DNA of 64,000 nt from Eledone cirrhosa (lineage: Eukaryota). Positions 323-62,118 of this stretch are shown piece by piece (positions within the stretch are counted from its first letter, which is position 1; every line of letters starts with the position of its first letter). The notes below the pieces were generated by a model. That model ran no database searches, was not told the origin of the DNA, and saw nothing but the letters and a program-made list of their open reading frames with translations. The translations under genes and the position numbers were made by a program. Location: assembly GCA_964016885.1 (NCBI GenBank), contig CAXHJY010000370.1, forward strand, positions 1 through 64,000. The letters run 5' to 3'.

Positions 323-1022
323 TTGAATTATAAAATGTCAGCCCTAAAGTTTCTAATGGGGCCAGGCCAGATGTAGGGACCTTATTTCAAACTGCTTATT
401 AAGTATTTTTGTAATAAGTGTTAAATACATATGATTTATATATGGGTTACATATATATATATATATATATATATATATATATGACAGTCCGGACCGAGGA
501 AACAATGTTTCCATTAGTCTTTCCAATTGCTAGTACTATCTATCGGTCGCAACTCCAGGTAGAAGGAGCAATATATATATATATATATAAATATATATAT
601 AAATATGTACGTGGGGTCTTACTGGTTCCTATTACCCACTCTACTACCTCAAGTATTGAGTACTTTGGTGCGTTATGGTCCACCTGGTTCCTTACCACAT
701 TTCCTTCGTTATATATATATATATATCATAGACCGAGTTCGAAACTCAAAATAGTATTTTACAATTAAATAACTCAAAGGCAGTTGCCCAATATAGGTTT
801 GTTATTTTTATTGATTTATTACTTTAGATCGAGACAGGCAAACCATATTGTTTTAAATTAGTATTTCTTCAACCTAGCTAACTTGGTCATCTGCAATTGG
901 ACCACATGTAGACTTGTATCGGTGTCCATCCCTCTCATATATTCAATTGTATATATATATATATATATATATATATATATATATATATATATATATATAT
1001 ATATATATATATATATATATAT

Positions 1023-1440
1023 TGGAACGAGTAAGACCCCGACGGCTGAGCTCAAGCCGTTTCGACGGCTAATTCTGGACTAAAATTTTAGTCCAGAATT
1101 AGCCGTCAGGGTCCTACTCGTTCCTATTACCCACTCTACTACCCTAAGTATTGAGTACTTTGGTGCGTTATGGTCCACCTGGTTCCTTACCACATTTCCT
1201 TCGTTATATATATATATATATATATATATATATATATATATATAACGAAGGAAGTGTGGTAAGGAACCAGGTGGACCATAACGCACCAGAGTACTCAATA
1301 CTTAGGGTGTTAGAGGGGGTAATAGGAAAAGAGTCAGGACCCCGACGGCTGAGCACCGGCCGTTTCGAGAGCTAGATCCGATCTCGGATCTAGCTGTCGA
1401 AACGGCCAGAGCTCTGCCGTCGGGGTCCAGAACCCTTTCC
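1023..1440. repeat. Family P fold-back repeat (double palindrome) in (TA)n
   Basis: ggaacgagtaagaccccgacggctgagctcaagccgtttcgacggctaatt.. and its reverse complement. Other copies near 610, 8652, 18300, 22913, 35670, 37675, 47219, 61068 and 61705. Confidence 0.85.
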
Positions 1441-1585
1441 TATATATATATATGCTGAATTCATAAGTAACAACAGAACTACAACTTGATGGGTCGCCCC
1501 TCACCCACAAAAACAAACAATGGCAGTCCCATATCAATTGGCTCATGTTGCCAAAATATATATGTATATATATATATGTACACAC

Positions 1586-1757
1586 ATCGGTAGAGGGTCG
1601 GACGCCATGCTTTGACGCATAGAGTTACGGCCCTTGCCATTCTGAGTTCAAATCCCGCCGAGGTTAACTTTGCCTTTCATCCTTACGAGGTCGATAAAAT
1701 AAAGTACCAGTAATACACTGGACAATTGCTGGCCTTGTGCCAAAAGCAGAAACAATA
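1586..1757 (+). mobile_element. tRNA-derived SINE family A
   Basis: B-box gagttcaaatcc; central gcctttcatccttacgaggtcgataaaataaagtaccag (resembles Meta/MESC-type SINE domain); tail ggccttgtgccaaaagcagaaacaat. Confidence 0.85.
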
Positions 1758-1894
1758 ATATATAAACACACACATATATATTAATAAAAGAAATTCCAAC
1801 TGTCTCATTTACTCGTTTTATTTACAATCCTTTAAAATTTATAATGGTATTAGAATGAAATAGTATGATAGAATATTAAATGTTAAGTGTTAAT

Positions 1895-2045
1895 TGAACA
1901 AGTATTTTCATGCTTTCGCAATCTTCAGGTTCACATTCTGTGGTGACAGTCAAGTTTGCAATTTTCAACTGTTGAAAATTGCAAACTTGACTGTCACCAC
2001 AGAATGTGAACCTGAAGATTGCGAAAGCATGAAAATACTTGTTCA
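1895..2045. ncRNA. Hammerhead ribozyme pair (+2007-2045, -1895-1933) in a perfect palindrome
   Basis: TGAAC CTGAAGA T-TGC-GAAA-GCA-T GAAA ATAC TT GTTCA; stem III is imperfect. Confidence 0.65.
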
Positions 2046-2577
2046 ATTAACACTTAACATTTAATATTCTATCATACTATTTCATTCTAATACCATTATA
2101 AATTTTAAAGGATTGTAAATAAAACGAGTAAATGAGACAGTTGGAATTTCTTTTATTAATATATACATACATATATATATATATATATATATATATATAT
2201 ATATATATATATATATATATATATATATATATATATATATATACAGTAATAATAATTATAAAGACTAAAATCTGTACCAATAATAAATATGTATGCATAC
2301 ATATAACTGTAAACTTGCCTCCCGTGTTTTGTTTCATTTATTAACTATACACACACATATACATACATATATACATACATATATACACACACACACACAC
2401 ACATATATATATATATATCCTTCACTACCATTGCTGCACATGTACTCACCTCAAACCCCTCACCTTTACTCCACCACCACCACTCCTACCACCACCACCA
2501 CCAGGGCTGATGAGTCCACACTGCCACTAAGTGCACATACCTACCGACTTTTTATTTAGTGACATTGACAATCAACA

Positions 2578-57924: not shown

Positions 57925-57982
57925 ATACTATGATCATTTCAATGACCGGGTTCAGTATGAATCCGGTGACATCATCAGGTAT
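57925..57982 (-). ncRNA. Minimal type I hammerhead ribozyme
   Basis: rc: ATAC CTGATGA TGTCACCGG..CCGGTCATT GAAA TGATCA TA GTAT. Confidence 0.75.
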
Positions 57983-58250
57983 TCGAAATATAACAAGGGA
58001 ATATAATAGACAAAATCCATGGGTCTGAAAATCAGAGACAGGAGGGCGGCCAAACATTTAGCAGCTTCTACCCTGGTCAGCCGCCCTCAATTATAATTAA
58101 TATATATATATATATATATACTGTATATATATATATATATTATATATATATATATATATATATATATATATATATATATATATATATATATATATATATA
58201 TATATATTAATTCAAATATTAACAAAATAGATATTCTTGTGATCAATTAA

Positions 58251-58449
58251 ATTTTATTATACACATTTCAGAGGTACTGAATCAAGTTCAACAGTACGTC
58301 CTCATCAGATAAAATAAAATGATACATGACATACCCTGACATGTTAGATGGTTAAGATTTAATCAAGGTAGTTTATTTTATTTTATTTTATCTGATGAGG
58401 ACGTACTATTGAACTGAACTCAGTACCTCTGAAATATGTATAATAAAAT
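58251..58449. ncRNA. Inverted pair of hammerheads (-58251-58315, +58385-58449)
   Basis: Same family as 24629 and 36443, in divergent orientation. Confidence 0.75.
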
Positions 58450-61067
58450 TTAATTGATCACAAGAACATCTATTTTGTTAATATTTGAATAAATATTAAT
58501 AACTCTGGAAAATATCTTTCTGTAGAGTGCTTTCAATCTACTGTAAAACACATTCTTTGATCTACTCATTGAATCTTGTTTAACTCTTTAATATATATAT
58601 ATATATATATATATATACATACATACATATATATATATATGTATGTATATATATATATATATATATATATATATATATCATACATACATATACATACATA
58701 TATATATATGTATATGTATGTATGTATATATATATATATATATATATATATATATATATATATATATATATATATATATATATATATATATATATATATA
58801 TTAAAGAGTTAAACAAGATTCAATGAGTAGATCAAAGAATGATTTTTACATATATATATATATATATATATATATATATATAAGGAGTATAGTGATGTGT
58901 AGAGGAATTTCAGTCAAGAAAATGTGGATGTCTGAACTGTAACGGTTTAGGGGGAGTTTGCTTACAACATGACTGGATAAAAAGTGTATATATGTAAGTT
59001 TGTGAGTGTGTGATTGTGGGTGGTTGTGCGTGGAGATGAATGTGTATGCATGAGTGTTGTATGTATGTATGTATGTTTGTGTGAATATATGATTGTGAGT
59101 TGTGTCTACAGGCTCGTGTACGTTCTGTGTATTTGTGCGCGCGCGTGTCTCTGTGTGTGTGTGTGTGTGTTGTGCACTTCAAATAAAAACAGTGGTAAGT
59201 ATTGTTACAAGATGTTTTGGTCAGAGGTCACATGATATAATGAACTACAGACACTATATATGATACATACATAAGAATCATATATATATATATATATGAA
59301 ATATATATATATATATTTCATATATATATATATATATATATATATTTCATATATATTTCATATATATATATATTTCATATATATATATATATATATATAT
59401 ATATTTCATATATATTTCATATATATATATATTTCATATATATATATATATATATATATATATATTTCATATATATTTCATATATATATATATTTCATAT
59501 ATATATATATATATATATATATATTTCATATATATTTCATATATATATATATATATATATATATATATATATATATATATATATATATATATATATATGA
59601 AATATATATATATATATATATATTTCATATATATATATATATATATATATATATATGAAATATATATATATATATATATGAAATATATATATATATATAT
59701 ATATATATATATATATATATATATATGAAAAATATATATATATGAAATATATATACATATATATATATATATGAAATATATATATGAAATATATATATAT
59801 ATGAAATATATATATATATGAAATATATATATATATGAAATATATATATATATATATATATATATATATATATATATATATATATATATGAAAAAATATA
59901 TATATATGAAATATATATATATATATATATATATATATGAAATATATATATATATATATAAACTTAGAATTATGTGTATATATATATATATATATATATA
60001 TACATATGCACATATAGTTCAGATACATACACTCAAAAATTTACAAACTCATACACACACATATATATACATATATATACACACACATATATATATATAT
60101 ATATACACACACACATATATATATATATATATATACACACACATATATATATATATATATATATACATATACACATATATATATACATATATACATATAC
60201 ACATATATATATACATATATATATATATACACATATATATATATATATACGCATATATATATACACATATATATATACATATATATATATACACATATAT
60301 ATAAATATATATATATATACATATATATATATACATATATACATATATATATATACATATATATACACACATATATATATATACACATATATATATATAT
60401 ATATATATACACATATATATATATATACATATATATATATGGTTGTGTATGTTTGAATATAAATGTACACAAAAAGGTGAGGATCGGGGTGAGTAGAGGG
60501 AGAGAGAGGCGAGCGTAGCTATGAGAATGAGGGAGAGGGAAGGAGGTGTGGGGTGGTGGTGGTGGTGGTGGTGGGGGGGGGGGGCTATTTGGTATTTGGG
60601 GAATCGGGAGTACTTGAAACAATGTGGTTCTCCAAGAACGTCGAACTGACAACACAACAGAAAACAAAACCGGAGAATGTCACAATATCGACCAATCAAA
60701 TTGCAGCATGTGTTTTAGACATAGCATTGGTACAAGTGACACCATCAACGAAACTACCATCCCCACCACCACCACCACCATTATATATATATATGTATAT
60801 ATATATATATATATATATATATATATATATATATATATATATATACACAGTTCAAGAGTAACCAATCTTAAAGAAAGAGATGGAGAGAAGAGATTGGTGA
60901 ATTAGTTAGAAGCCAAAGCGTAAAAGGCATGTGCTCAATGTGCAATATGCAGTAGAAAGCAGCTAGGTGGCTGGGTTCATGCAGAGGTTAGGTGCGCAGA
61001 GCTGGAAATATTCTTGTTTTGCTTAACTAATGAATATATATATATATATATATATATATATATATAT

Positions 61068-61336
61068 AGGAACGAGTAGGACCCCGACGGCTGAGCTCAA
61101 GCCGTTTCGACGGCGAATTCCAGAATTAGCCGTCGAAACAGCTTGAACTCAGCCGTCGGGGTCCTACTCGTTCCTATTATTACCCACTCTACTACCCTAA
61201 GTAGGGTAGTAGAGTGGGGTAATAGGAAAAAGTTTAACCCCCGACGGCACAGCTCAAGCCGTTTCGACGGCTATTTATGTCCAGAAATAGCCGTCGAAAC
61301 GGCTTGAGCTCTTCCGTCGGGGTTAAAGTTTTTCCT
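61068..61336. repeat. Family P nested palindromes
   Basis: Two hairpin units joined through ctactaccctaagtagggtagtag. Confidence 0.85.
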
Positions 61337-62118
61337 ATATATATATATATATATATATATATATATATATATATATATATATATATATTTATTTATTTAT
61401 GTAATAAACAAAACAAGACAATTATTTAATTTACCAAAGGTTTCACGAAGATAGCTATTTATTGATTTATTAATTTATTATTTGAGTGACCCGAATTTTC
61501 CTGGTCGTTTTTTTCGGCTGTGCGAATGATTTTAGGCATCGTCTCTATGTGTTGGTATTTTAACGATAGTTATAGCTCTGGTTTATCCAAACTATTGAGC
61601 CCTCTGCCACACATGTCGAAGATTGTTTATCGTTATTTCGTGGGCCGAGATTCTGATTCTCGATTATTTACTTATATATATATATAGATAGAAGATATTA
61701 TAAAGAGTCGGGACCCGACGGCTGAGCTCTTGCCGTTTCAAAAGCTTAGCCGTCGGGTTCCCGACTGTTTATAATAAAACCAAACCCTACTACCCCAAAT
61801 ATCTAGTACTTTGGTGAGTAAACAGAGAAGGAGAATGAAAGAGAGGGAGTGAGCTGGTGGTGTTTTTGTGTGTATATATATATATATGTGTGTGTGTATA
61901 TATATATACGTGTGTGTGTGTGTGTGTGTTTATAACCAGTGTATATAGATCACAGACATCCCCATATATATATATATATATATATATATATATATATATA
62001 TACACACACACACACACATTCATATGTATACACACACACACATTTATATATATACATACATACACGTATATATATATATAGGCCTTCCAGTTTCATTTCA
62101 CATTATATACATGTCTGT

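Follow-up and report, generated by a model that had tools for sequence, protein, structure and literature searches.

The window, by which we mean the whole 64,000-nt stretch analyzed, carries numerous copies of a repeat (family P) whose shared motif corresponds to the 3' half of a type I hammerhead ribozyme, as the first-pass annotation had recognized. That annotation counted about 10 loci with the half-hammerhead, and a 30-nt version of the motif matches the window 11 times at three or fewer mismatches, against an expectation of 0 matches in 100 shuffles. The inversion axes that it described, at which two arms meet head to head, are where it placed them (~1085, 8714, 38085, 47280, 61120, and 61275), and further family P copies are present at 1380, 18375, 23051, 35717, 37720, and 61740 (Table 1). 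No copy in the window is adjoined by a 5' hammerhead core, also as claimed. A repeat search of the window was dominated by microsatellites. Rfam at gathering score gave 0 matches in the window, which says little since complete hammerheads of a second family (family Q) escape it too.

Table 1. Family P arms and insertions in the window
Coordinates	Strand	Feature
614..710	+	Solo tail arm, 0 to ~+100; starts at the predicted hammerhead cut
1023..1084	-	Short arm, +19 to -44; ends in (TA)n
1087..1204	+	Tail arm, -44 to +102; internal sequence lost between two copies of AGCCGTC
1243..1380	-	Second insertion (GGATCTAGCTGTC subfamily), tail arm; shares its (TA)n tract with the 1023..1204 insertion
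1381..1440	+	Short arm of the second (GGATCTAGCTGTC subfamily) insertion
8651..8714	-	Short arm, +19 to -44
8714..8820	+	Tail arm starting at -34; its tail carries a deletion
18307..18375	-	Tail arm, only +102 to ~+28; no overlap with its short arm
18376..18439	+	Short arm from AGTTCGGATC (~-41) to TTCC
22913..23051	-	Tail arm, end at ~-41
35663..35717	-	Solo short arm, reaching -33
37673..37912	.	Diverged insertion: short arm (-), ~40 nt of filler, tail arm (+)
37951..38142	.	Insertion: tail arm (-), short arm (+), axis ~38085
47216..47420	.	Complete insertion: short arm (-) to -45, tail arm (+) from -42, axis ~47280
47281..47285	+	AGTCC at -41, the commonest 5' end; putative initiator-like transcription start
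61066..61338	.	Four-arm composite, axes ~61120, 61202, and 61275
61702..61819	.	Old, diverged relative, laid out in the same way

Positions are numbered from the base directly after GUC (position 0). The copy at 610 begins exactly there, in agreement with the proposal that it starts almost at the putative GUC site, and the furthest 5' reach of any arm in the window is -45. Outer ends take one of two forms, TTCC|TA (+19) or TTCCTTCGT|TA (+102), and the suggested TA microhomology is real, because a tandem long copy continues with TA at both points. The arms are unequal, with the +20 to +102 tail usually present on only one of the two. The hairpin GACGGCTAWTT...AAWTAGCCGTC, previously read as the stem II hairpin, is instead the inversion junction, and the native stem II 5' strand is CTCGGCTATT. 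The deletion in the right arm at 1085 has removed GAAA and stem III.

Family P corresponds to the pLTR (terminal repeat) of a Penelope-like retrotransposon of the Hydra type, and about 40,000 of its copies in the genome bear a tail. Long elements are organized as a pLTR, an ORF for reverse transcriptase (RT) and GIY-YIG that starts at +190, a 3' untranslated region of ~1.2 kb, and a second pLTR, in a unit of ~3.6 kb; one copy (L167) is a tandem pLTR-ORF-pLTR arrangement, and another (L174) has a 710-aa ORF with FDIESYY, MGATDS, and YRDD motifs and a C-terminal YIG-type domain. The element thus has the single ORF (RT with C-terminal GIY-YIG) flanked by pLTRs that characterizes EN+ Penelope-like elements. 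A Pfam scan of the ORF itself gave no match, RVT_1 scored above the cut-off in one of five ORF homologues scanned, and a PDB search with a 40-sequence profile gave no match to the ORF. Hydra-clade motifs (RWR, SDKTGN, CNCPDRSIC, and CNLCSEE...LLNKKDELVTACKH in P0001) were recognized by eye against the text and supplement alignment of PMC8557442. Insertion into (TA)n, as in the Hydra clade, is seen at the ends in the window and, by inspection rather than by count, in most flanking sequences, and 75 of 100 tail sites adjoin an inverted arm ending at +10 to +21. An inverted 5'-truncated copy with a tail on a single end is described in the Fig. 2 legend of PMC8557442, and earlier publications already report (TA)n targets, a tail on one side, and an inverted pLTR for the class. 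Family P lacks the canonical hammerhead and the length under 3 kb that are typical of the clade; on sequence grounds it is a variant rather than a typical member because its core is noncanonical and its unit is ~3.6 kb.

The long copies contain the upstream half of the ribozyme. The expectation that master copies would carry CCCC plus a core upstream is borne out by 1,692 exact genome matches, although the core is not the predicted CTGANGA; the sequence CTGANGA-GACGGCTA has 0 genome matches because the actual core is (T/C)TGANAA. CTGANGA does occur 49 times at no more than 34 nt from the motif, but these were rejected as masters, as all 30 that were read are junction filler or head-to-head joins with other families. 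Among 79 long copies the 3-8 pair of the core is U-A in 41, C-A in 34, and the canonical C-G in 0, while stem I is fully paired (5/5) in 57, outer stem II (6/6) in 56, stem III (5/5) in 60, G10.1-C11.1 is kept in 70, and GUC in 73. Core, three stems, G10.1-C11.1, and an NUH site are thus all in place for a type I hammerhead. Position 7 varies (G, T, A, or C), and three copies of a second subfamily have a compensatory change in stem II. The hammerhead fold lies 0.8 to 5.7 kcal/mol above the minimum in four copies (five were folded, the fifth mis-registered). In a separate folding analysis the fold was not significant (z = -1.28). U3-A8 is reported to be active (PMC3088659), and C3-A8 is not known to be. 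Six of 102 arms start at -1 to +1, a weak hint of hammerhead self-cleavage at GUC. An intron splitting the ribozyme, with TTTTAG as an acceptor-like site, was ruled out by the contiguous long copies.

Arm ends were mapped at 100 tail-arm sites, a nonrandom set taken from the first 17 Mb of one contig. The inversion points do fall in stem II, as had been claimed: the interval -51 to -33 contains the ends of 52 of the 100 tail arms and of 58 of the 75 short arms, whereas no tail arm ends at -99 to -52 and nine end beyond -100. The modal 5' end is -41 (11 of 102 arms, a sample that overlaps the 100), and at the other side the end point is +19 or +21 in 70 of the 75 short arms. The short arm reaches at least 10 nt further 5' in 22 insertions and the tail arm in 5 (binomial p = 0.0015), and 12 of 75 arm pairs overlap barely or not at all; deletion after insertion could be the source of some non-nested arms. 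A subfamily segment is identical in both arms in 25 of 32 cases, compared with 22% by chance. Word depth rises ~5- to 8-fold across -44 to -32 in assembled public runs, although these are three runs from one sample, with library type unrecorded and possibly the assembly source, and are not independent support. We note that family P ends are spread over ~14 nt and that many arms continue into the T at -42 to -44 or beyond.

Within stem II, family P ends cluster at (T/C)AGT, which resembles an initiator, with an extra G in front of it. The motif (TTAGTC, TCAGTC, or TCAGTA) is present in 78 of 85 long copies, with the surrounding stem variable. The base before A(-41) is G 5,420 times and A 890 times, whereas one position further upstream the counts are 422 and 1,336, and G occurs at -42 in 0 of 84 long arms and 18 of 83 short arms. 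This count is confounded: in 10 of 30 G matches a script assigned the G to the final base of the opposite arm, and inspection by eye put the share at about half; the unexplained excess in a small unselected sample is only 6 G versus 4 A, and ends at -35 are also followed by G (8 of 22 unexplained). An extra G is described as a cap mark in full-length L1 insertions (PMC11702581). The family P TATA-like box is a poor match (TATTTA(A/T) or TATATAAA in 30 of 85, TATTCATA or TATTCAAA in 42 of 85), and the GGATCTAG subfamily has none. A by-eye look for MTE/DPE-like promoter motifs gave nothing convincing. TATA and Inr elements together are on record for a rotifer pLTR.

In two other families, Q and R, the 5' ends pile up upstream of an intact hammerhead, at promoter-like motifs. 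Eighteen of 30 family Q ends fall at -46 to -34 from the family's own core with a mode at ACAGTT, and a TATA box lies 33 nt upstream of ACAGTT in seven of eight long copies; 10 of 30 family R ends fall at -88 to -60, a broad pile-up. Since these ends lie upstream of the ribozyme, the earlier idea that ribozyme structure directs the inversion point does not hold.

We favor, with a probability of roughly 65%, the reading that the head-to-head pLTR stubs derive from two cDNAs that ran off the capped 5' end of the RNA, inside stem II. Transcription would start at the A of (T/C)AGT(C/T) at -41, and the 5' pLTR copy on the mRNA would lack the ribozyme core because such a start lies inside stem II. 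Both ends of a cut (TA)n target would prime reverse transcription on one element RNA, with the element protein starting at a pair of internal TA sites; in vitro work on an Anolis element reports two such RT starts, with both strands extended, and a predicted dimer (PMC11167929). Sites in the 5' copy of the mRNA would yield products of just ~60 and 143 nt, both of which would run off the capped end, with the cap copied by RT as C, and host end joining would then fuse the two cDNA 3' ends through microhomology or short templated filler. Long inverted pairs would arise where this reaction takes place at the 3' copy instead, and the stubs are probably dead ends. Run-on into the T at or beyond -42 to -44 means that such a model needs start heterogeneity, resection, or untemplated addition.

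The first-pass interpretation survives in part, in that the hammerhead half, the masters, the retroelement origin, and the stem II points stand, whereas its snap-back and CTGANGA are not supported. In that reading a single cDNA, primed at +102 and halted in stem II, folds back, uses itself as template, and is joined to the target at a TA microhomology; self-priming is the standing idea for Penelope inverted repeats, proposed in print for inversions and palindromes (PMC3846280). In its favor are the subfamily variants common to both arms (25/32), coupled arm lengths (a long inverted partner in seven of eight long insertions), arm ends within 10 nt of each other in 48 of 75 pairs, and the loop-like text kept at a few junctions (L079, L018). 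It predicts a short arm nested in the tail arm, however, and the asymmetry is the opposite (22 versus 5); there are 12 pairs with little or no overlap, one of them in the window (18307 to 18439), the short arm stops at one TA (+19) despite several others in the arm, and the native loop is lost, with short arm pairs spanning -99 to -52 in only 1 to 2 of 75. At least 9 of 30 junctions read, a pattern-selected set, join a P arm head to head with another Penelope-like family. We regard self-priming as quite unlikely.

Twin priming could also operate with 5' ends that mark RT stops at stem II on a longer read-through RNA. The pile-up does coincide with the 3' strand of the inner hairpin (-57 to -37), and the scatter of ends across ~14 nt fits, but RT gets past stems I and III and the outer part of stem II, which are GC-rich and stronger, the AU-rich inner hairpin forms in some long copies but not all while the initiator-like motif is kept, a position-specific extra G is not predicted, and in families Q and R the ends accumulate at a distance from the ribozyme; stalling is unlikely. 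A short nonautonomous element, MITE-like or a palindromic master copied whole and eroded at its center after insertion, would explain fixed outer ends in (TA)n, copies by the tens of thousands, and, through the instability of palindromes, a damaged center. Yet every arm corresponds to the 3' end, in sense orientation, of an element that encodes RT, the centers almost all differ, the ends are unequal with the tail on one side, and erosion would neither stop at -41 in both arms nor add G. No link to a transposase partner was seen. That the family is a retroelement rather than a MITE, as first suggested, follows from the unequal arms and the RT partner (target site duplications being unreadable in (TA)n); the MITE-like reading, already largely refuted by the RT-linked long copies, is highly improbable. 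Taken at the sequence level, the junctions favor two primers on one RNA and run-off at the cap.

The origin of Penelope-like inverted repeats is named as an open question in PMC8557442, and with independent junctions numbering in the tens of thousands, a single genome lets models of inversion be distinguished. No statement that Penelope inversion points are transcription starts was found in the literature searched, with Repbase and most subscription papers outside the search. If run-off occurs at the cap, the RNA should have an exact start, the extra base should depend on the cap, and cDNAs of two lengths should arise, predictions for which an existing in vitro system is suitable. More tentatively, it is possible that the element promoter is nested in its own ribozyme and that twin strong-stop-like run-offs are a general source of Penelope inverted pLTRs. 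An inert half-hammerhead and a pair of RT start sites would then stand at the head of the mRNA, twin run-off cDNAs would be the outcome of most integration attempts, and run-off cDNAs jumping to the 3' copy of the RNA would rebuild the pLTR. If so, stubs would map Penelope transcription starts from DNA alone. Hammerhead searches based on the core overlook most family P genomic copies because these are cut through stem II, and stubs transcribed inside host genes could supply much hairpin RNA.

The known elements most like that of family P are those of the Hydra clade of C-terminal EN+ Penelope-like elements, including Hydra-1_Obim of Octopus bimaculoides (Craig et al. 2021, PMC8557442), which likewise have a single ORF with RT then GIY-YIG and share an RWK-like motif, DKT, a CxCX5C linker, CxxC and CxH around the conserved E and N, (TA)n targets, a pLTR hammerhead, and an inverted 5'-truncated copy with a one-sided tail. 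Family P differs from these elements in its ~3.6-kb unit with a 1.2-kb 3' untranslated region (versus under 3 kb), its U3-A8 or C3-A8 core and 54- to 56-nt stem II, and its ~83-nt tail (versus 30 to 40); it is a different family from Hydra-1_Obim, whose hammerhead is distinct, and the family P motifs searched for are absent from the supplement of PMC8557442. The minimal hammerheads of Schistosoma Cercyon (Cervera and de la Pena 2014, PMC4209133) show the same core covariation in a Penelope pLTR, and CUGANGA is never seen in family P because its core, (T/C)TGANAA, is the U3-A8 variant known from Schistosoma. Opposite-strand motif pairs are there ascribed to truncated copies and loop 3 is palindromic, as here, whereas family P has a full 5-bp stem III and a long stem II. 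Poseidon of Anolis carolinensis (Frangieh et al. 2024, PMC11167929) likewise has two internal RT starts bounding the tail, cutting and extension of both target strands at AT-rich targets, and no need for hammerhead cleavage; unlike Poseidon, family P start sites share TA with the target, and the ORF starts well past the hammerhead rather than at stem II. In L1 twin priming (PMC11702581), the same RNA similarly serves as template for another cDNA, primed by the second target end, end joining links the inverted pieces, and an extra G appears where RT meets the cap. L1 inversions duplicate no sequence and the second primer site is variable, whereas both primer sites are fixed in family P and the arms usually overlap, so that strand displacement or a second RNA would be needed.

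The half-hammerhead stubs of family P, which we read as pLTR pieces of a Hydra-type Penelope-like retrotransposon, are real, with 11 motif matches in the window versus none in shuffled sequences, and, as the first-pass annotation reported, a 5' core lies beside none of the window copies. All of the window insertions are placed in (TA)n, which in tracts of at least 10 nt accounts for 18% of the window, and have a short arm ending at +19 (0 being the first base after GUC, with minus values 5'), usually together with a long arm ending at +102; mapped on a long copy, the 5' reach of these arms stops at -45. 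In the genome searched (3.0 Gb, 1,796 contigs), the 24-nt arm motif has 52,348 exact matches and the tail motif has 40,211. Family P is nearly certainly an ordinary member of the Penelope-like class.

Master copies with CCCC and a core upstream had been proposed and do exist, with (T/C)TGAGAA as the core; the precise master text predicted for them is absent from the genome. The 49 matches linked to CTGANGA were rejected as masters: each of the 30 that were read is either filler at a junction or a join with another family. Several of the first 30 arm-motif matches listed run upstream without inversion into ACCCC-(T/C)TGAGAA-G-CT-CGGCTATT, and the ACCCC-(T/C)TGAGAA core pattern is present exactly at 1,692 genomic places. 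Across 79 distinct long copies the arrangement is that of a type I hammerhead: stem I is ACCCC/GGGGT, stem II spans 54 to 56 nt, stem III has 5 bp and a palindromic loop, and GUC is present. At the 3-8 pair, 41 of these copies have U-A, 34 have C-A, and none has C-G; activity of a U3-A8 hammerhead is on record in passages of one report (PMC3088659), and the pair is described in Schistosoma Penelope elements in part of another (PMC4209133). The C3-A8 lineage, whose ribozyme is probably weakened, has been about as successful in spreading as its U3-A8 counterpart. A second family P subfamily has a compensatory stem II change (3 copies). We also note that six of 102 tail arms (two of them doubtful) have their first base at the predicted cut (-1 to +1), versus about 2 expected from neighbouring positions, and some RNAs may be cleaved by the ribozyme and then copied to that end.

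The anatomy of the insertions was taken from the first 100 tail-motif sites listed, all within the first 17 Mb of contig C1, each aligned with 22 real long copies as the reference panel. Nine tail arms begin beyond -100, none between -99 and -52, 52 between -51 and -33, and 39 further 3'; the alignment can run slightly too far, by a few bases, where a junction is palindromic, and it falls short in about three diverged copies. An inverted arm adjoins 75 of the tail sites. In 58 of these it ends at +19 and in 12 at +21 (where the reference has a 2-nt insertion), and its other end reaches -51 to -33 in 58 of the 75. Word depth in three assembled public runs of one sample, which are not independent, rises 5- to 8-fold across -44 to -32, and this step argues against an assembly artefact. 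Runs of A or T at some junctions (see the table) may have been added without a template or may reflect slippage where the template ends.

Features of family P and of other hammerhead-bearing families by window position or genomic locus (L-numbers)
Feature	Window position	Strand	Genomic loci	Description
Palindromic stub of family Q, control	1780-2160	both		complete CUGAAGA hammerheads, plus-strand core at 2012, minus-strand core at 1928
Further CUGANGA...GAAA motifs	7890, 10849/10363, 36088, 54045, 54830, 57527, 63598			look like hammerheads of other families, judged by sequence
Paired insertions	1023-1440; 37673-38142			each two insertions per (TA)n tract, tails facing, giving larger palindromes
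TA-rich array	38470-44000			very long, nearly pure
Non-nested arms	18307-18439
Tail arms at predicted cut	614		L138, L186, L194, L208
A/T runs at junction			L022, L088, L343, L363	12-25 A or T just beyond -41
C3-A8 core mismatch			L069, L136, L155 and others
P arm head-to-head with another hammerhead- or GIY-YIG-bearing family			L032, L033, L034, L039, L040, L046, L047, L050, L059

We give a probability of about 0.65 to the reading, made from sequence, that the half-hammerhead would be a run-off product at a transcription start nested inside the ribozyme. In 78 of 85 long copies, position -41 falls on the A of TTAGTC, TCAGTC, or TCAGTA; this motif, which resembles an initiator, is retained in a stem that varies around it. 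A TATA-like box lies 29 to 32 nt upstream and is weak. At the base before A(-41), 5,420 places have G and 890 have A, a ratio that flips one base further upstream (422 G versus 1,336 A), and G is present there in 0 of 84 long copies. An extra G is described as a mark of cap copying in L1 in sections of PMC11702581. The G is also the last base of the opposite arm in 10 of 30 G matches by script and in about half by eye; with the extra-G count halved the odds ratio is still near 10, and a small unselected sample has only 6 G versus 4 A. Two other hammerhead-bearing families of this genome, Q and R (6,066 and 6,776 motif matches), have arm ends that pile upstream of an intact CUGANGA, in samples that required the core and counted some insertions twice. 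Among Q arms, 18 of 30 end within the stretch 46 to 34 nt ahead of the core, for the most part at ACAGTT, and seven of eight long copies have a TATA box 33 nt upstream of the end site; for R, 10 of 30 arms end 88 to 60 nt ahead of the core, shortly before AAGATGGCG, a YY1-like site. The initiator-like motif, the extra G, and the Q and R ends together point to -41 as a putative RNA 5' end.

The first-pass annotation attributed the inversions to a single cDNA that snaps back on the stem II hairpin and primes itself, and self-priming was put forward earlier for palindromic Penelope junctions (in part of PMC3846280). This requires a short arm nested inside its tail arm, and the arms run against it: 22 insertions have a short arm that extends beyond the 5' end of the tail arm by 10 nt or more, versus 5 the other way (p = 0.0015), and the tail arm begins at or beyond +16 in 12 insertions (about two doubtful), with one extreme case starting at +56 beside a partner that reaches -102; the window also has a non-nested case. 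If both target ends prime cDNAs, the tail-arm reverse transcriptase may have to displace the other cDNA, which would explain why tail arms are the shorter ones. The Anolis protein is described, in the relevant portion of PMC11167929, as having two internal reverse transcription starts that bound the tail, with both target strands extended; the fixed +19 end fits such a defined start. The two arms are identical over a segment that varies between subfamilies in 25 of the 32 cases that could be read, versus 22% by chance, and long insertions have a long partner in seven of eight. Snap-back fits both of these as well; with priming from both ends, they make it likely, from sequence comparison, that the two primers use a single RNA and the same copy of its pLTR. 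Junctions of P arms with other families, drawn from a pattern-selected set, suggest that two different RNAs are at times used at one target site. Family P junctions have short overlaps or filler, and the adjacent arm is often the source of the filler; this would be expected for end joining.

A 710-aa reading frame stops roughly 1.2 kb before the core, and at one locus a pLTR-ORF-pLTR tandem is present, with an ATG at +190. Of 7,996 candidates scored, 403 are homologues of the protein; a Pfam scan of the ORF gave no hit, and one of five homologues scanned hit RVT_1. We did not find a transcription-start reading of Penelope inversion points in the literature searched. A TATA box plus Inr is on record for a rotifer pLTR (in part of PMC3846280), the promoter of D. 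virilis Penelope is described as internal in a portion of PMC2377424, and a retrozyme preprint, in the sections available, has tandem arrays as its subject and not stubs of this kind. Parts of PMC8557442 present inverted pLTRs, tails, (TA)n bias, and hammerheads as regular features of the Penelope-like class, and in a by-eye comparison with the Hydra clade as presented there, the RWR, DKT, CxCX5C, and CxxC/CxH motifs of the P protein agree. Hydra-1_Obim is a family distinct from family P.
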